Positions 12,713 to 55,000 of a stretch of DNA of 64,000 nt are shown here, in pieces. Numbering within the stretch: the first letter of the stretch is position 1; each line of letters opens with the position of its first letter. Source of the stretch: Yuukianura sp. NJ FZ-2021 (Eukaryota); assembly GCA_046563655.1 (NCBI GenBank), contig CM102286.1, positions 3,100,001-3,164,000 on the forward strand, read 5' to 3'. Position numbers and translations under genes: made by a program. The notes below the pieces were generated by a model that was not told the DNA's origin, made no database searches, and saw nothing but the letters and a program-made list of their open reading frames with translations.

Positions 12713-13558
12713 TTATGGAAATGCCGTAACTAGTTCGAGTAAATTTGAAAAGTAGTAATTTGGCGGGAATCCAAGCACGTCTGGTGGTGCTGGACTTCGT
12801 TTTAGCCAAGCAGTATTGTATCCATAACTTTTAGCTCCAGCAGCATCCCAACTGTTGCTGGACACAAACAAAACGTTTTTCTTCGCAATGCAACTCTCTT
12901 GTTCCAACCATGCGTAAACTGCAGGATTTGGTTTAAATGTCTTAACCGGGTCAACACTAATTACATCTGAGAAAAACGAACGAAGTCCCGCGTTTTTTAA
13001 AACCCGGGAAAGCATTCTGGGTGCTCCATTAGACAAAATGAAGAGTTTGCGTCCTGATGCTTTCAGTCTCTCGAGTCCTTCCCTGACTTCTGGGTATGGT
13101 GTAAGATGATACCAAGATCTTAGAAGATACTTTTTGTCTGAAGAGGTCAAAGTTCTATTGTAGAACTGCAGAGAATAGTCCAGTGCATCTTTAGTAACTT
13201 CCCAAAAGTCAACATATCGGTTCATGCTGTTTCGGAGCCATGAGCAACTCAGCTGCTTTTCTCTCCATAGTGCAGTAAAACTTGGCGGGAGATTTAAATG
13301 TGCAGCTCTCAAACTAGGAACCGTAGCGACGTCGAGTAGAGTTCCGTAGGCGTCAAAAGCCATTGCAGTATACTGCCCCGCTCTATTCAGAATTATACAA
13401 AAAATTCGCTAACAATTTTTTTCCACAATTTTTCATAATTTTATCAAAAAATAAAATAAATATTACTTTTTTGCACAACAAACGTTGGTATTTGTTGTCA
13501 ACCAGCTCCATGTTGGACACACAAAGGCGATCACAGTTGACACCAAGAAAAATTTCAT
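12713..13558 (-). CDS. L-2-haloacid dehalogenase (HAD type II) with signal-peptide exon; join(13467..13558, 12713..13382), 253 aa
   Basis: FDAYGTL nucleophile motif, WREKQL, LSNG, FKPNP.VY, FVSSNSWDAAGAKSYG. Upstream exon MKFFLVSTVIAFVCPTWSWLTTNTNVCCAK joins in phase 2 across an 84-nt GT-AG intron (13383-13466). Confidence 0.88.
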
Positions 13559-40873: not shown

Positions 40874-42411
40874 ACATAATTCGGTTCAAATTTTTTAACC
40901 AAAGTTCAGTCAGTGCTCTATTTTTGTTTCGCACATTGACAAATTTTGTTATCCGTGAGTCATTACACGCCAAAGCAAATTTAGAAGTAATAAAAATTGC
41001 AACAAAATTTCAACCTTGTTAAGTTTTTATTAACCCTGAGTTTTGAAACCTATAATCCATACGTTCTTGAAAGCCTGAAGTGACCACCAGAAAATGGCCA
41101 ATGTTAGCATAACTTGATTTGATAAAAACTTTATTTCAGTACCATTTAACTCAAACCAAGATAAGTAACATTATCACCTACTAATAGCTAATCCAATGTA
41201 ATAGTTGTTTTTGCAATATTTATCTTGGCTGAATTCCAATTGTCAGATTGCAAATGTCAACCACTTGTCATGGGTTTGGTTTGCGCAACAATCAAGGTTT
41301 TGGCATTAAAAATGATGGCTAAAATCTATCCCAAGGTTTTCAAGGTATGCTTGTTACGCGTGCATCACATGCGTTAAAAATTCCGTTATGGATTCATATA
41401 AAAAGTGCAACTTTTGAATTTGTCGTGTCCTGCGTCCTGCCCGGCGTATTCACAAAATTTAGCCCTGTTATAAATTAAAAGAAAACCTCAACGAACGCCA
41501 TGTTTTTTATGCTTCACACTCCAATTGCAGTAGCAAAAATTACCATAGCCTAACTCATTACCGATTACAGAGGACTAACATAGCCTAATAAAATATAATC
41601 AAATTGTTCCACATTAACTTATCATATCCTTTGAACTTAAGAAGTTTGTGCATACTGCATCTACATTTTTTCAAGTGTAGTGTCCACTAAAATCGGGTAA
41701 AAAAATGAAATTCCTGAGGTTCATAATGAATACTTATTCATAACTACGTAACAATTAATGATTAATTACTAATGAAACTAATTGAGAAAATATGCTAAGT
41801 TGTTTTAAAACAGATTACTTTAAATTGGATTTCGCAATTGCTGTAAAGCAAATCCATTTGGTGCAGAAAACTTGAAAAATTATCTACGTGGCATTTCAGT
41901 CTTTGCAGCTTATGTTTCAGTCATTGAATTCATGCTAGATAAAGTCCAACTAAAACCAAAAATAACGATTGACCTGACGTGAAATTTTTGTTTTCCGCAT
42001 TCAGAAGTAACTTGAAGACTTTGAACAGCAGATGACGGAATTCACAGAATTATTGATTCCGTTTTTAAGGGATTTCCATCATCATTTGAGTTCGAAGCCC
42101 ACCAAACTGTTTATTGGTTAACTGATTCAAAATTATGCTTGCAAATTTTTGCACACCTTGAATGACGAAAAAACGGTTGATTTAACTAATCCCAAAAAAC
42201 ATCAGGAAAAATATAGCTGATAAACTTGAAACAATAACCACTTAAATCAATGGTACAAAAATGTTGAAAACTTGGAAAATACAAAACCAAGCTGGACGAG
42301 ATAACAATTTCTAATTAATTTTCAAAGTGACGATTTTTTCTCTATAAAACCATGGACACTGCCAAATGAAAAATTATTCTGCAAACCAATTGTTTCCAGA
42401 AAATACTCATC

Positions 42412-44826
42412 ATGAAAGCCGTATTCCTTCTTGGCCTTTTGGTGGCCGTAGCTGTGGCAAAGAATTGTAAGGCTCCAACAAAAATTAAAAAAAAAATAGT
42501 CAAAATCCGAAAAAAATTAGTGTAAACTGATTTTAACCTGAAATTTGTTTTGAATTGCTTCTGCAGTGCCCCAAAAGCCAAGAACTTTTGGAAACTTTGG
42601 TCCTGATGTCCCAAGGTCATTCAAGTCGTACAAGGCAAAAGACCAGATTGTCCTCAACAGCGCAGATCCAGTTGACGCAGCAGTCGAGTAAGCTACTTAC
42701 TGATGATGCTGTTTTAAAATTCAAAATTTTGAAAATGCTAAATTTTCATTTTACTTGATAGATTTTTCACACGAAAATCCGGCTTCCCTGCTGCCCAGAC
42801 GCACATCGCCAGCTACCACACCGCTGGACACAACGGAGTGACTCACGTTTACCTCCAACAGATCGTCAACGGACTCCAAGTCGTCAACGGTGTCGCTAAC
42901 GTCAACGTTGGTCGCAATGGGCAAATCCTCTCCATTGGAAACTCATTCTTCAACGGACCAGCACCAAAATGTAACCTCAAATTCAACAAAAAGCTAAATT
43001 TTTCTTCAAATCAACAGTCTTCTGATTTTTTTTTTGTATTTTGTAGCCTCCCGCCCACTCCACTCCATCGTTGATGCCCAACAAGCTTTGGAAGCCATCA
43101 CTGGCTCCAAGCCCGGCAAACTCAACACCGAATTCCCAGCCAGCTTGAAATACATCAACAATGGCGAGAGCTTGGTTCTTGCCTGGGACTTTGTTTACGA
43201 AACCGAGGATAACATGTAAAAAAAAAGTTCAAATCCTAAAAACTTTGAACTTTAGGCTTGAAACTTGAAATTTTGATGTCACTTGAACCATAGGTACAAT
43301 GCCATTATCGATGCCACGACCAACACCGTTGTTCAACTCGTCGATTGGGTTTCCGATGCTGCCTACACTGCTTACCCACTTGGAATCAACGATCCACTCA
43401 GCGGAGATCGCGAAGTCATTGTTGACCCAGCTCATCCAGTTGCCTCTCCCTTGGGATGGCATTCACAGGGTGATGGAAATGACTTCACCGATACTCAAGG
43501 AAACAACGTCTTCGCTCAGGAGAACACTGGTAAGGAACTAACTTTTAATAACTAAATTCAAAACGATTTCTAACCGTGCCAAATTTGAATTTTCTTAAAG
43601 ACGGTACTTCTGACTGGGAAAACAACTACAGACCAGACGGAGGAGCTGATTTGATCTTTGATCCAGCACTTGACTTGACCGAACAGCCAGCTCAATACTT
43701 GGATGCTTCCATCACCAACTTGTTCTACTGGAACAACGAGATCCACGATTTGTTCTGTAAAAAATATTTTTGAAAACTATGTTTCAAATTGTTTCGAAAT
43801 TTCAAAACTTTTGGAAATCTTATTCGAATTTGTTTTTCCAGACGTCTACGGATTCGATGAAGTTTCTGGCAACTTCCAACACAACAACCTCGGACGAGGA
43901 GGACTCGGAAATGACGCAGTCATTGCCAACGCCCAAGATGGTTCTGGATACAACAACGCCAACTTCATGACCCCACCCGACGGAAGCCAAGGACGCATGC
44001 GCATGTACGTCTGGACTCAGACTAACCCATGGAGGGATGGAGATTTGGACGGAGGCATTGTCGTAAGTTACAAAACCGGGAAATATTTGAAAATCAAAGA
44101 AAAATCTACTTGAAAATTACCTAAAAATTTTGTAGATGCACGAGTACCTCCACGGTATCTCAATCCGTCTTACCGGAGGACCAAGCAACGTCAACTGTCT
44201 CGGATTTGGAGAAGCCGGAGGAATGGGAGAAGGTTGGGGAGACACCTTTGCCACCATCACTCGAGTCACCGCAGAGACCAGCAGTAACCAAGTCTATCAA
44301 ATGGGAGACTACTCCAACGGTGGTTCTGGAATCCGAAACTACCCATACTCCACTGACTTCGACGTCAATCCATCCACCTACGCATTCATCACGCGTCCAG
44401 GATACGGTGGTGTCCACGCCAAGGGTAAGCGAATTCTTCCACTAGATGGCGCTATTCGTCCGCTCAATTCTTGCTATAACTCAGCGTTGGTTTGTGATTC
44501 TAGGAGAAGTCTGGGCTGTCATCCTCTACGAAGTCTTCTGGCAATTGGTTGAGGAAAGTGGATTCCAAAGCGACTGGTTCGACGTTGAAGCTGCAAACCC
44601 AGGAGGAAACATCAAGTTCTTCCAGAACGTCATTGACGGCATGAAGCTCCAGCCATGCAACCCATCCTTCGTTGAGGCTCGTGATGCCATCTTGGAAGCC
44701 GATGGAAACAACTACGGAGGAGCCAACACATGCGCCATGTGGCGAGGATTTGCCAAACGTGGTCTCGGAGAGGGAGCCCGCACTGGTGGAACTGAAAGCT
44801 TCGATGTTCCAGCTGAATGTCAATAA
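42412..44826 (+). CDS. Secreted fungalysin (peptidase M36) with FTP propeptide, 9 exons
   Basis: Signal [19 protein letters not shown]-like [78 protein letters not shown] zinc motif, [37 protein letters not shown]. Confidence 0.95.
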
Positions 44827-45560
44827 GCACCAAAAAACGATAAAAACAAACTAGTTGTTCCAAATTAAAACATTGAATTGGCAGTGACATCGATATGCAT
44901 TGAATAAAATTTGCGGAAGATCTTGACATCAATCCAAACAATGATTCTTTAATTCAATTTTGCTTTAAAAAAATAAAATCATTTTCAAGTGATAATGTCA
45001 AAACAGAGTTGTAAGTTTTATATTGACCAATTGTATAAAGGGACTTGTCCATGGTAAATTAGATGTTATGGAATGTTAAATAGGCAAGACTAAGCGTCTT
45101 TTTACAATGGCAAAGAAAGAAATTTTTTTTTCAGGAAAATGATTGAAGATCATTTTACATACTAGAGTGGAAATTAAACTACTATAACAATTTAAGGAAA
45201 AGTTCGGATTTTTTTTTGCTGTGAAGATAATTTTTAGATGAACTTTTAAAAGTTTCGAGTACGCGTACGTTTGCGTCTCAGCCGCAAGTTTGGACACGGA
45301 TGAAGTGTTGTGTTATTGTAGATGGCGCAATAGTAGTTTTCTCTTCCGTAGTAGTTGTTGTGTATCAAGTGAGATGGGCTGCCGTAGCTGTATAAGATGG
45401 TCTATAAGAATTTGGTTGGAAATAGGATTTTGGCGGGAAATAATGCGGGGACGACTACTGGTGGCTTGGTGGGGCAAAGTAGTTATGAACAGTAATTGGA
45501 GGTTGATTTGCAGTAATAGAGTTGTAAGGATTCGTGATTGGTGGGGCATATCCATAAGTA

Positions 45561-46681
45561 CCGTATTTTCCCAAATAGTACACCTGGTGTACTAATTTTG
45601 TTTTCGACTTCTGGGGGTGGTGTACTATTAGGGATCTGGTGTATTATTAGAGACGGTGTACTAATTAATTTTTTAAGAATGAGGATTTTATTCTTAACTA
45701 AAACGTTTAGGAATCAGGAGAAAATAATTTCTAAATTACTAAAAACTACTCCACTTCGTTCTCAGAATCCCTATCCACAGTGTCCAAGTCGTATTCTTCT
45801 TCTCCACTTGAGTCAATTAACACAGTTTTCAACCAGTCACAGGTCAGATCATCGTTCATCCAACCATTTGATGAATGGTTTCAGCTTTGTTCCGTCACCT
45901 TTGGCCTCTAGAACAAGCGTAGCGTGTGCCTTCTCATTTCCAGTCGACTTTAGTTGAACAGTTTTAGATCCAGTTGGAGCAATTGTTGTGTTACTCAGCA
46001 TGTCGAACAACAGACTGGTTTCGTCCATTGCAATAATTTGTGATGGTTCGATCTTCGTTCTGTTTCCGTTATCCAATCCGTAATCCAGTAAAAGAGTGAA
46101 TCATCCAACTCAGGGATCAATCGTTTCCGTCCACCGCCGATCAACCTTTTGTGTTTGACCTTGGATGATTTCACGTTTGACACTATAAACAAAATACTGT
46201 TTCAGTACGAACGTAATAATGAGGAAAAAATTTTATTTACAATAATTACTCACCTAAAGCATTTTCCTTTCTAATCCATGTACGAATACTCTGTCGATCA
46301 ATGTTGTATTCTTTAGCAGCTGCAGAAATTGATTTATCCTTGGCCAATTTCAACACTTTCAATTTGAACTCCAGGTCAAATGATCTTTTTTTTTGTTGGG
46401 AGACATTTTAAGTAAGAATACGAATGTTAAGTAAAACAATTTGAGGAGAAGTAACGTGGAGATAAACACAACAAATGAAGACCTATAATATTACTAGCTC
46501 AACTACCTTCTCCGGGTGTTATACTCCTAATGCTACATTACCAACGACCCTGGTGTACTATTAGAGACCTGGTGTACTATTTGGGACGGTGTACTAATTA
46601 ATTTTTCGGCCCCTGGACCTGGTGTACTATTAGGGACCTGGTGTACTATTTAGGTATGGTGTACTATTAGGGAAAATACGG
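45561..46681 (-). mobile_element. Internally deleted pogo/Tigger-type (Tc1/mariner superfamily) transposon
   Basis: TIR CCGTATTTTCCC.AATAGTACACC with TA TSDs at 45559-60 and 46682-83; subterminal GGTGTACTA repeats. Transposase remnants: HTH (SFDLEFKLKVL...AAAKEYNIDRQSIRTW), GGGRK, and DDE_1 start MDETSLLFDM...STGNEK. Confidence 0.93.
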
Positions 46682-47173
46682 TATTGTACATTTGTGGCAT
46701 CAGCGGTGGCATAGGCATAACATACTGAGGTTGTGGGATTACCAATGGCGTTTGAATGATAAGAGGATAAGGTTGGTGGCTACGGTAGGAAGGCGGCGGG
46801 TAGTACTGTTGAGGCGGGGCACCGTAACCATAGTCGTTATATTGATACGGTGGTGGTGGATATCTGGATCTGTATCGCGAGTAGCCGTATCCTTCATCCA
46901 TATCCATATAACCATAGGCTGGTGTTGTGGTTGTATCTGGAGGAGGAGTGGTAGTGTCTGGAGGTGGTGGTGGAGGAGTTGTGGGAGGTTGAGTAGTACT
47001 TGAGTAGCATTTCTTGTACTTTTTTTTCCTATAACTTCTTGGAAATCGTAGATGATGGTGGTTGCCGGAGTTAGGCGGGTAGTTACCGGTAGTGAAGTTT
47101 TCGTTGTTCCACGCCTTTGCCAGCATACCGCTTCCATCACCCTGGAATGGAGTTGGACCGGGACCAAACAATT

Positions 47174-48031
47174 CCCGGACTCCAAAGGATGGTCACTAAC
47201 GGCCTGATATCCGAATATCCTAACGGACTGTTAAGAATGGACAGTCACTATTGGCCAGCCTCCGGCAGATGGTCGCTAGAGGGCCATCACCAACGGCCAC
47301 ATACGCTAATTTACACTTAATACTGGACGGTCGGTCACTAATGGACATTAACACATCTTGCTTTAGTTACTCAAAATTTGCTTTACTTACGTTACTAAAA
47401 ATCTGTAAATTTTCATTGCCTGAAGCAAGGCGTCAATGTCCATTAGTAGCGACCATCCACTAACTAGTGTTCAGTAAAGTAAGTGTCCGTTTGGTGACTG
47501 TCCTTTAGTGATCATTCGTTACTGACAGTCTATTATTGACTGTCCGTTTGGATGTCGGGCCGTTAGTGGCCGTCCATTATAATTAGGGGGTGTAAATCCG
47601 GATTTTTTTATTTCGGATATAAATCCGGATTTTGTTTTTCCGGATATAAATCCGGGTTTTTGACGGATGCGGATTCTTCCAAATCCGGTTTTGAAAAAAA
47701 TGGAATCCGGGTTCGACGGACTTTTCGTTTCATTTCAAGATAGTATGGAGAATTGGAAAATTGATGTCGAAAACAGAAATACTGAGTTAAAATAAAAAAA
47801 ATCACTCTGAAATCAAGTTAATCAGAAAGGAGTATTCCTGACGTCCGTTATCAATTTTTTTTGCTAGAGTATTAAACCAACGTTGTCCATAATTTTGTTA
47901 CTGCAAATATTGTTATGGAAAATCCTATATATTCTGAAATCCGGAGTTTTTAATAAAAATCCGACAAAATCCGAAATCCGGATTTCTCGAAAGCAGTAAC
48001 GGATTTACACCACTAATTTTAATTGACTGGT
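47174..48031. mobile_element. Non-autonomous TIR element inserted in the pseudogene exon (hosts a nested hAT MITE)
   Basis: GGATGGTCACTAACGGCCTGATATCC is inverted against GGATGTCGGGCCGTTAGTGGCCGTCC; repeated GTCACTA/TAGTGAC motifs; absent from the paralog at about 54580. Ends are approximate. Confidence 0.7.
47584..48015. mobile_element. hAT-type MITE, nested
   Basis: Termini TAGGGGGTGTAAATCCG and CGGATTTACACCACTA; 8-bp TSD ATTATAAT/ATTTTAAT (7 of 8 match); subterminal AAATCCGG repeats. Confidence 0.85.
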
Positions 48032-52045: not shown

Positions 52046-55000
52046 TTATCGCGAAAATGAACGTACACGACCTTTGCTGTAAACACTGACACTGGACGAA
52101 ACCGAGACTTTCTCAGTCGCTTCTTGTTCATATCCATCACCTTCAGAGTCGTAATCGTCTGGATAAATTTCTGCCTCAGAAGAATCTGATGGAGCTACAG
52201 TCGTCGTCGTTGTCGTTGTACTTTTAGGTGTGGTAGGTGGCGTTGGTGGTGGAGTAGAAATTTCAGCAATAGTAGTGTATACTGGCCGTGAAGTTGTGGT
52301 TGTTCGAGAATGTCGTTTATACTTTCCCGCCGAAGTTTCACTGTAGCTACTATAGTAGGACTGGAACGGTGAAGGTTTTGGTGATGTTGGAGCTTGTGTA
52401 GAATACCAGTACGAGTAGTGATCTTCAGGAGGTGAATAAGTATAGAGAGTGGTAGTGGAGGGAGGGGGTGTGGTATAGGGGGCGGGAGTAGTAGCAGAAA
52501 TATGGTAAACAATCTGTGGATATGGCGTTGTGGCGTACGTTGTTGGAGTTGTTGTTGTAGGTGGCGCTGTAGTAGTCGTCTCTTCCGTAGTTGTCGTAGG
52601 TTCTGTAGTTGTCGTGTATGGAGGGGCTACTGTAGCTGCATAAGATGGTACATAGGGATTCGGTTGCCAATAGGAGTTTGGTAGAGACGAATGGTGACTT
52701 GGTGGGGCAAAGAAGTTGTGAAAAGTAGCTGGAGGTTGATTTGCAGTGGCATGGCTGTAATGACTTTGTATATTGGGTGTGTGATAGGTGGGCGGAGGAG
52801 GGGGTGTGGGATAAGGGGAGTTAGTATGGTAAACAATCTGTGGATATGGCGTTGTGGCGTACGTTGTTGCAGGTGGCGTCGTAGTAGTTGTTTCTTCCGT
52901 AGTTGTCGTAGGTGCGTAAGGAGGGGCTACTGTAGCTGCATAAGATGGTATATAGGGGTTTGGTTGCCAATAGGAGTTTGGTGGAGACGACTGGTGGCTT
53001 GGTGGGGCAAAGAAGTTATGAGCAGTAACAGGAGGTTGATTTGCAGTTACATGGTTGTACTGATTTTGCATATTGGGTGTGTGATAGGTGGGCGGAGGAG
53101 GGGGTGTGGGATAGGGTGCGGGTGTAGTAGCAGGAATATAGTAAACAATCTGTGGATAAGGTGTTGTGGCATACGTTGTGGGAGGAATTGTTGTTCTTGT
53201 TGTTGTAGGTGGCGCTGTAGTGGTCGTTTTTTCCGTAGTTGTCGTAGCTTCTGTAGTTGTGTATGTAGTCGGAGGAGGTGCGTAATTTGGAGTGGGCGGG
53301 GCTGCCGTAGTTGCGTAATATGGAGCTGGTGGGGCTGGTGGAGTTGCATAATATGGAGTGGGAGGGGCTGCTGTAGTTGCGTAAGATGGTCCATAGGGAT
53401 TTGGTTGAGAATAGGAATTTGGCGGGAAATATGGCGGGGACGACTGGTGGCTTGGCGGAGCAAAGAAGTTATGGACATTAACAGGAGGTTGATTTGCAGT
53501 GGCATGGTTGTACTGATTTTGCATATTGGGTGTGTGATAGGTGGGCGGAGGAGGGGGTGTGGGATAGGGTGCGGGTGTAGTAGCAGGAATATAGTAAACA
53601 ATCTGTGGATAAGGTGTTGTGGCATACGTTGTGGGAGGAATTGTTGTTGTTGTTGTTGTAGGTGGCGCTGTAGTGGTCGTTTTTTCCGTAGTTGTCGTAG
53701 CTTCTGTAGTTGTGTATGTAGTCGGAGGAGGTGCGTAATTTGGAGTGGGCGGGGCTGCCGTAGTTGCGTAATATGGAGCTGGTGGGGCTGGTGGAGTTGC
53801 ATAATATGGAGTGGGAGGGGCTGCTGTAGTTGCGTAAGATGGTCCATAGGGATTTGGTTGCGAATAGGAATTTGGTGGGAAATATTGCGGGGACGACTGG
53901 TGGCTTGGTGGAGCAAAGAAGTTATGGACATTAACCGGAGGTTGATTTGCAGTGCCAGGGTTGTACGGAGCCTGCATTGGTGGGGTATATCCATAAGGAT
54001 TGTACATTTGTGGCATCGGTGGTGGCATAATATACTGAGGCTGTGGTGGTGGCATAATATACTGAGGCTGTGGTGGAGGCATAATATACTGCGGTTGTGG
54101 CATCTGTGGTGGCATTATGTACTGAGGTTGTGGCATTACATAGGGTGGTGTCTGAATGATAATAGGAGATGGTTGGTGGCTCCCGTAGGAGGGTGGTTGG
54201 TAGTACTGCTGAGGTGGGGGCGGTGGGGCATCGTAACCATAGTTGTTATATCGATACCGTGATTGTGGATATCTGGATCTGTATCGCGAATAGTCGTATC
54301 CTCCATCCATGTCCATGTAACCATAAGCTGGTGTTGTGGTTGTATCAGGAGGAGGAGTGGTAGTGTCTGGAGGTGGAGTTGTCGTTGGCGGTTGAGTAGT
54401 AGTTGAGCAGCATTTCTTTTTGTACTTCTTTTTCTTATATCGTTTTGGAGGCTGGTAGGTGCCATAGTTGTTGGGCTGGTAGTTACCGTAGTTACCGGGA
54501 GGGTAGTTACCACTGTTACTCGATTTGGCCATCGTATAGTTCCCACCACCCTGGAATGGAGTTGGACCGGGACCTGGAAATTTACCGGGACCAAACGGAC
54601 CGCCAAATATGCCATCAAATGGAGGAAATGCAGGACCACCTAAAAAGGAAAATCATTTCCATGTCATTTCCAATAAGGCATATATTTTTTTTAAACTAGA
54701 ATTTGTAACGTTTCAACAAAAATTTGAATTCTGGCGCATTTTCAAATTGACTTTGAAAAGCGACTAAGCTCATCTTTTCAGGACCAACTTGTTTTAATCC
54801 AGTTTTTCCCAATCAAATCAACCAAGATGCAAAATTTTTTTAAATTTGGAAATGACTGGAAATGACTTGCCTGGCACGAATGGGAATAAACCAGGATTAA
54901 AAAAGCCGCCCTTACTGTAGATGCCGTAAGGAAAGCCCCAGAATGGAAATTTGTAAGGCGGGAAAAAGACACGATCTTCTGCTTGAATCGTGGAATTTGA

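Follow-up and report, generated by a model that had tools for sequence, protein, structure and literature searches.

The question raised by this locus is how an intact gene for a fungalysin, a protease of a family (M36) that has been described as unique to fungi (PMC6117016), came to lie in an animal genome, and what its product may do there. The window, by which we mean the whole stretch of DNA analysed, covers 64,000 nucleotides (bases 3,100,001-3,164,000) of a 15.5-Mb contig in the 98.7-Mb, 22-contig assembly of the springtail Yuukianura sp. NJ FZ-2021. In line with a neanurid host, the ND2 protein encoded by a mitochondrial stretch of this assembly shares 97% identity with a Yuukianura (Neanuridae) protein, and the next best matches, from other Poduromorpha, reach 52-55%. 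A first-pass annotation of these letters had proposed an intron-rich, secreted M36 protease, acquired long ago from a fungus or a bacterium and now used in digestion or defence. The best explanation for the data, towards which as a whole the balance tips modestly, is an old transfer from an early-diverging fungus, followed by fitting of the gene to its host and by duplication, with the product secreted as a digestive protease.

The gene comprises nine exons, and the joined coding sequence of 1779 nt is open from the ATG to the stop codon and specifies 592 amino acids (Table 1). The eight introns had been described as short and host-like, and this description was accurate: all are GT-AG and measure 71-100 nt, with a GC content of 0.22-0.28 in seven and 0.44 in intron 8. 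Spliced alignment of the protein to the raw region returned the same eight introns, which is a check on the script and not independent evidence. When exons were scanned singly against Pfam, each of exons 5-9 exceeded the cut-off of 23.3 bits for Peptidase_M36 (PF02128) and these five covered the 368-position profile in order from position 2 to its end (E 9e-8 to 1e-35), and exon 3 matched the FTP propeptide profile (PF07504) with 48.1 bits against a cut-off of 21. Exons 2 and 4 gave no Pfam match and exon 1 was too short for such a scan. Exon 8 did not qualify for the M4 (thermolysin) family, scoring 16.9 bits with Peptidase_M4_C, under the cut-off of 24.4 bits. The N-terminus is basic and then hydrophobic, with a 15-residue mean hydropathy of 2.52, and a metagenomic homologue (L008, discussed below) has a similar one; on hydropathy, this leader is a predicted signal peptide. 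The layout read by the first-pass annotation (signal peptide, FTP propeptide and M36 domain with intact HEYLH and GEGWGD motifs) therefore agrees with Pfam for exons 3 and 5-9, with the leader predicted from hydropathy.

Table 1. Features of the fungalysin locus, in window positions.
Feature	Position	Strand	Evidence or remark
TATA box (TATAAAA)	42343..42349	+	69 nt upstream of ATG; window background 0.13 such sites/300 nt
Exon 1, start codon and hydrophobic predicted signal peptide (aa 1-18)	42412..42466	+	L008 has equal exon size and a phase-1 intron
Exon 2, propeptide start	42567..42687	+	Intron at aa 58, phase 2, common to paralog and L008
Exon 3, FTP propeptide motif (about aa 78-121)	42762..42970	+	Pfam PF07504, E 1e-12
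Exon 4, propeptide	43047..43215	+	An RNA contig from run X8 joins it to exon 5
Exon 5, propeptide end and catalytic domain start	43294..43529	+	Pfam M36
Predicted processing site D206|A207, exon 5	43355-43360	+	Alignment to 4K90 via P0003
Exon 6, M36 domain	43601..43756	+	Pfam; both flanking introns spliced in run X6
Exon 7, M36 domain	43842..44062	+	Pfam; spliced in runs X6 and X7
Exon 8, HEYLH, GEGWGD and H483	44136..44424	+	Pfam, motif positions
HEYLH (H391, E392, H395), exon 8	44139-44153	+	aa 391-395
GEGWGD (E421, D425), exon 8	44226-44243	+	aa 420-425
Exon 9, M36 domain end, C537, C562, C591, stop codon	44504..44826	+	Pfam, alignment
AATAAA at 44903, likely transcript end at 44926	44903..44926	+	Runs X6 and X7, from one study, each have contigs ending at 44926

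Several features indicate that the encoded protein is a conventional member of its family. The order of predicted signal peptide, FTP propeptide and catalytic domain is like that of known fungalysins (MEROPS M36; Aspergillus fumigatus Mep, PDB 4K90; also 7Z6T, 7QFY and 7QP3), the spacing of 30 residues between HExxH and EGWxD is equal, and the predicted processing site has the same acidic residue followed by Ala. Exon 8 matched all four solved M36 chains (E 1e-23 to 4e-22), and from such matches, including those of the relative P0003 (E about 1e-120), a thermolysin-like fold is predicted; a single-sequence AlphaFold2 model of P0003 reached a mean pLDDT of 31 and was not used. Aligned through P0003, the D206/A207 junction falls where chain B of 4K90 ends and chain A begins, and both residues are invariant in 11/11 members of the clade described below. 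The residues H391, E392, H395, E421 and H483, the last of which we take to be the thermolysin-type active-site histidine, do not vary across the 11 rows of the clade or the 81 fungal and 22 bacterial rows. The four cysteines presumably pair as disulfides. Members of the M36 family have a signal peptide and an FTP prodomain, are cleaved at an acidic residue and bind zinc through the two HExxH histidines and the ExxxD glutamate (PMC6117016). By analogy, the leader would direct the window protein into the secretory pathway, the propeptide of roughly 190 amino acids would fold and inhibit the enzyme, and self-cleavage at D206/A207 would release a mature enzyme of 386 amino acids in which zinc would be held by H391, H395 and E421 and water activated by E392. 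Judged by its sequence, the protein is very probably an active M36 protease.

It had been recognized from the outset that such a gene could be a fungal contaminant. Contamination by, or mis-assembly of, fungal or gut-content DNA would account for the fungal identity of the best named matches, and among the contigs listed for a DNA-type run from a separate study (X4) none covers the entire 9-kb stretch around the gene. That same run, however, had depth in 30/30 bins over the gene and its flanks, and two M36 copies lie 326 kb apart on a 15.5-Mb contig with animal genes around them. In the window these include Jun, a GMC oxidoreductase, a UDP-glycosyltransferase (UGT), a BTB protein and a DUF4808 protein (Pfam); Jun has named matches in insects and in one chelicerate, with about 40-46% identity along most of its length, and three further relatives reach 69-80%. 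The introns are AT-rich and of host size, and the same introns occur in a gene with arthropod neighbours from an unrelated metagenome. Transcript evidence came from four of the nine public runs with part of the gene, in every case as contigs. Contigs from a soil metatranscriptome (X8) had introns 4 and 5 removed, those of run X6 introns 5, 6 and 7 and those of run X7 intron 6, although X6 and X7 are RNA by guess only. Splicing was thus seen for four of the eight introns (4, 5, 6 and 7), and introns 1-3 and 8 were crossed by none of the contigs listed for the four runs. Because the gene sits among animal genes on a 15.5-Mb contig and RNA contigs splice half of its introns, we regard it as a host gene with near certainty, and contamination as extremely improbable. 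Two observations on these runs were set aside: joints in X4 from 38822 and 40239 to about 42713 had sides of only 21-23 letters and were treated as repeat matches, and the coverage by X6 and X7 of the M36 gene alone in the 9-kb stretch was dropped as a sign of high expression, since the runs had been found with the M36 gene.

The gene is not alone in its host. A genome-wide search for the M36 family gave 10 exon matches at exactly two loci, the second of which lies 326 kb downstream, with copine, elongase and further host genes around it (named by reading of translations). This paralog encodes 659 amino acids, 289 of 590 aligned residues (49%) are identical to the window protein, and synonymous sites between the two genes are saturated. 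Its nine introns include eight that match those of the window gene in phase and site, one of them GC-AG, although for two of the eight, which lie in the loosely aligned propeptide, the phase is equal and the site agrees within three columns; the ninth is at aa 459. Unlike known fungalysins, the paralog has a hydrophobic C-terminal tail (15-residue hydropathy 2.22 vs -0.16 in the window protein) and is without the last two cysteines, and it carries five N-glycosylation sequons vs none in the window protein. The tail, with small residues, a spacer, a hydrophobic end and no cytoplasmic part, appears GPI-like.

A metagenome scan extended the family beyond this host, with 17 loci confirmed out of 171 pattern matches and 10 of the 17 aligned with splicing. 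The closest counterpart, L008, is 68.7% identical to the window protein over 600 columns, and comparison of the two genes (dN 0.23, dS 1.05-1.23, dN/dS about 0.2) shows that the window gene is under purifying selection. L008 contains all eight introns of the window gene together with the aa 459 intron, and a second locus, L024, which is cut at its 5' end and has two frameshifts, contains seven intron sites, which is all that its span covers. The aa 459 intron is present in the paralog, L008 and L024 and missing from exon 8 of the window gene; the ancestral gene had at least nine introns and the window copy lost one. A 60-nt segment at aa 513 that was called as a tenth intron of L008 was not accepted, as it is in frame, contains no stop and may be an insertion. 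L008 has as neighbours a P450, a CRAL-TRIO-like gene (by reading) and a mitochondrial phosphate carrier with 94% identity to that of the host. A fungalysin gene is thus present in at least one further arthropod, which is probably a springtail. Since L008 and L024 belong to a single assembly, they may represent one animal. The flanking genes of L008 had no match in the window or in five other stretches (L003-L007), and its phosphate carrier maps to contig C8; gene order thus favours neither the window copy nor the paralog as the ortholog of L008. The first-pass annotation had suggested a count of paralogs in related genomes; two loci were found in the host, with a counterpart in another arthropod. 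The 49% identity of the paralog with saturated synonymous sites, and the dS of more than 1 to L008, indicate that the M36 gene is old in its host.

Where the gene came from was approached through its relatives. A protein search with exon 8 passed 937 matches; among the best 120, 83 carry species names, and all 83 are fungi with chytrids at the top. Over the catalytic domain, identity to the window protein was 71.5% for L008, 65-69% for transcript-derived proteins, 61-66% for chytrids (Gaertneriomyces, Spizellomyces, Geranomyces and Entophlyctis helioformis being the nearest named sequences), 60% for Rigifila ramosa, a non-fungal protist that has M36, and at most 51.5% for 77 bacterial M36 rows. 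In the main tree (IQ-TREE, LG+G4; 47 rows including four outgroup rows, and excluding redundant taxa and those unnamed rows that fall outside the clade), the window gene, its paralog, L008, L024 and four unnamed proteins formed a clade (99/99). This clade formed a group with fungi that left out Rigifila and bacteria (98/96) and stood beside the core chytrids (84/96), and eukaryotic M36 were apart from the four outgroup rows (100/99). FastTree analyses of 139 and 272 rows recovered the same clade (support 0.996 and 0.95) within or beside the main fungal group, and a quick mixture-model tree of 79 rows gave it a support of 97 within an unresolved grouping (83-92) that also contained fungi. Seven clade members (P0001, P0003, P0013, P0032, P0047, P0050 and P0121) are transcript-sized contigs and may belong to other arthropods or to kin of the donor.

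The springtail-containing clade has its own stem and is nested in no named chytrid order, and approximately unbiased (AU) tests did not fix its sister group. Making the fungi monophyletic without the clade cost 0.28 log-likelihood units (p 0.5); placements with bacteria (p 0.218), with Rigifila (p 0.303) and with terrestrial fungi (p 0.221) were also compared, and none of the four alternatives was rejected. The catalytic core and zinc ligands are shared with bacterial M36 (Chloroflexota, Bacteroidota, Myxococcota and others), but a bacterial donor, one of the two sources that had been suggested, is the weaker option given the best bacterial identity of 51.5% against about 65% for chytrids and the 100/99 separation of the eukaryotic proteins. 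The age of the gene was supported, and we consider transfer highly probable and, should it have occurred, a fungal donor a good deal likelier than any other on the sequence comparisons. An early-diverging fungus is favoured by the data, without proof. In the maximum-likelihood tree, the phylogenetic check set the clade beside chytrids and apart from bacteria; the AU tests allow other positions.

One alternative to a chytrid-like donor is a microbial eukaryote from outside the fungi, or an unsampled basal lineage of the fungi. The M36 of Rigifila, the several unnamed eukaryote-type M36 that branch near the base and the AU result for a springtail clade outside the fungi would all suit such a source. 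At five of eight clade-typical columns, moreover, the residue of the clade is found in 41-86% of 22 bacterial rows and in no more than 11% of the named fungi (81), a pattern compatible with a donor that branched early or is missing from the sampling. The maximum-likelihood trees nevertheless put the clade in the fungal group, above Rozella, and the top named full-domain identities are those of chytrids (about 65-66%, vs 60% for Rigifila), and we regard a donor of this kind as unlikely. Less likely again is vertical inheritance of an M36 gene that was present in the animal-fungal ancestor and survives only in the present arthropod lineage. The occurrence of M36 in Rigifila and the acceptance by the AU test of a position sister to fungi are compatible with it, and an intron-rich structure requires no transfer. 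It would, however, require many independent losses, and an identity of about 65% to chytrids would seem high for so old a split of a secreted enzyme. No named animal M36 was present among the 83 named of the best 120 matches or among the named clusters of 20 representatives looked up, and the ESM Atlas returned known M36 clusters only, with no animal as the commonest taxon in 9 rows. Wide vertical inheritance across animals, which had been held to weigh against a transfer, found no support among those matches. Springtails also carry many fungal genes (PMC5644144). We consider inheritance from so remote an ancestor very improbable.

For the favoured reading of a fungal transfer, a comparison of intron positions with fungal genes had been proposed. 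The animal introns lie at aa 18 (phase 1), 58 (phase 2), 128 (phase 1), 184 (phase 2), 263 (phase 1), 315 (phase 1), 389 (phase 0), 459 (phase 0) and 485 (phase 1). Six fungal-type loci gave 12 predicted intron sites from aa 200 on, and none of the 12 lay within three residues of the five catalytic-domain sites of the animal genes; the eight introns of the window gene are not at the sites of these loci, which represent few lineages and include no chytrid, and the animal introns could in part have been inherited from the donor. The single long propeptide 'introns' of L009, L011 and L015 are probably alignment gaps and, with one exception in L011 (aa 204), fall beyond the compared stretch.

The first-pass annotation had also noted a codon usage richer in C-ending codons than that of the neighbours, and this held on counting. 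For Phe, Tyr, His and Asn, 98 of 116 codons (0.84) of the window gene end in C, compared with 252 of 559 (0.45) in 11 neighbouring coding segments pooled (Fisher p 1e-15). By the same measure EF1-alpha reached 0.87 (45/52), and eRF3, mitochondrial EF-Tu and U5-116k gave 0.57-0.66. A TATA box lies about 70 nt ahead of the ATG in both the window gene and L008. Codon bias at the level of EF1-alpha together with a TATA box suggests bulk synthesis, and the window protease is probably soluble and abundant. The paralog showed no codon bias (61/142) and no TATA box was found upstream of it; with its tail, it is probably a low-level, membrane-tethered form. Upstream GATA sites (2, 1 and 1 in 300 nt, with 0.44 expected) were too few to be used as an argument for expression in the gut.

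From the codon bias, the TATA box and the biology of the host, we infer that a secretory tissue of the feeding tract, either midgut or salivary gland, may produce large amounts of the protease, which would digest the protein of microbial food. The suggestion that the animal eats fungi or detritus was apt for a soil springtail: Yuukianura szeptyckii, its nearest named species, takes yeast and oats in culture and refuses slime mould (PMC12284588). Neanuridae are without a molar plate and require protein-rich fluid or fine particles (PMC4495557). Digestion in gut or saliva is the most economical role, and we consider it reasonably likely. The same acquired enzyme might have another main job, either warding off microbes at the cuticle or within the gut or remodelling the cuticle or peritrophic matrix at the moult. 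Fungal M36 proteases cleave host matrix proteins and plant chitinases (PMC9866270), and the membrane-anchor-like tail of the paralog suggests surface roles. The EF1-alpha-level codon bias and the conserved TATA box would better suit bulk secretion, as of digestive enzymes, and the host family depends on protein-rich food; we therefore rate this main job as rather unlikely. On the digestive reading, duplication would have given one soluble digestive protease and a second form ending in a GPI-like tail. Perhaps a single chytrid-like transfer into an early springtail lineage, with the gain of at least nine introns and the division into soluble bulk and GPI-tethered forms, gave rise to the main digestive or pre-oral enzyme of neanurids, although we offer this fuller scenario tentatively and doubt that every part of it will hold.

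By sequence, the window protein is a plain M36 member: its enzyme chemistry is not new, and what sets it apart from known fungalysins is its animal host. Transfer of genes from fungi to springtails is already an established kind of event. Known transfers into arthropod digestion mostly concern carbohydrate enzymes, and a secreted broad protease would be a less usual acquisition. In the neanurid Holacanthella, 155 transfer candidates include 96 candidate genes from fungi (PMC5644144), and there too fungal-type genes lie among arthropod genes with early-diverging fungi as best matches. The gene table and candidate list in the available part of that source name no M36 or fungalysin, many entries being 'hypothetical protein', and parts of two supplementary files of the Orchesella paper (PMC4987106) hold no M36 match. 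We found no report of an animal M36, in a search whose coverage of subscription journals was thin, and among the springtail papers listed no mention of fungalysin and no paper joining M36, metalloprotease and springtail. The range of fungalysin in animals thus appears to have gone unreported before. If the proposed history is true, a protease of the type used in fungal virulence has been turned to the needs of an animal feeding on fungi and slime moulds, and the enzyme may help to account for the way in which neanurids, lacking a molar plate, deal with protein-rich food. The locus also provides a dated and testable case, with conserved introns, one intron loss, soluble and possibly anchored copies and a springtail genus amenable to rearing on yeast. 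The pre-pro region is a further point of difference from the fungal proteins, at 206 amino acids in the window protein, where 76 named matches from early-diverging fungi have a median of 312.

A full M36 protein is encoded by the non-fungal protist Rigifila ramosa (P0246), and M36 is therefore not limited to fungi and bacteria among the named sequences. The metagenome assembly that yielded L008, a locus with an arthropod-type M36 gene, holds a second gene of this type at L024, which carries two frameshifts; L024 is either a pseudogene or affected by assembly errors. Pfam scanning of the Asn/Gly-rich ORF at L008 gave no match. In the springtail itself, the M36 paralog on the same contig as the window gene has one GC–AG intron and one additional intron, and its C-terminal hydrophobic tail appears from the sequence to be GPI-like. 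Copine-like genes are duplicated around this paralog, with one on each side.

Intron 8 of the window M36 gene has a GC content of 0.44, above that of the seven other introns, and includes a 14-base match to the presumed insect CTCF-binding consensus. This exact word occurs three times in the genome as against zero for a reversed control, and it is absent from the corresponding introns of the paralog and of the L008 gene. A core resembling it was also noted at window position ~45320.

Depth in X4, a DNA-type run, was 78–332 at the repeat following the M36 gene as against 2–25 across the gene itself. Two proline/threonine/tyrosine-rich ORFs in the window are related, sharing a common N-terminal pattern, and possibly encode cuticle- or mucin-like proteins. 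The hydrolase exon looks bacterial.

Features in the window, at related loci and elsewhere in the assembly
Feature	Location	Strand	Remarks
Haloacid dehalogenase-like hydrolase, long exon	window 12713-13408	-	Pfam Hydrolase, E 1e-20
CTCF-like word (presumed consensus)	window 44439-44452		intron 8
High-copy repeat	window 45423-46927		directly downstream of M36 gene; depth in run X4
Pro/Thr/Tyr-rich ORF	window 46650-47192	-	180 aa
Pro/Thr/Tyr-rich ORF	window 52046-54652	-	868 aa; long internal repeats
M36 paralog	G000:C4 ~3,468,580-3,471,290 (L003:3581-6290)
Asn/Gly-rich ORF	L008:9215-9643	-	small cysteine-rich motif at its end
Mitochondrial ND2-COX1-COX2	G000:C4:7,554,040-7,558,380		within large nuclear contig
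Mitochondrial ND2-COX1-COX2	C10:1,260,363-1,264,703		within large nuclear contig

The mitochondrial stretches on the host contigs C4 and C10 have identical scores; COX1 and ND2 are open and COX2 is apparently interrupted in the one copy read. These stretches represent either recent nuclear insertions or assembly artefacts.
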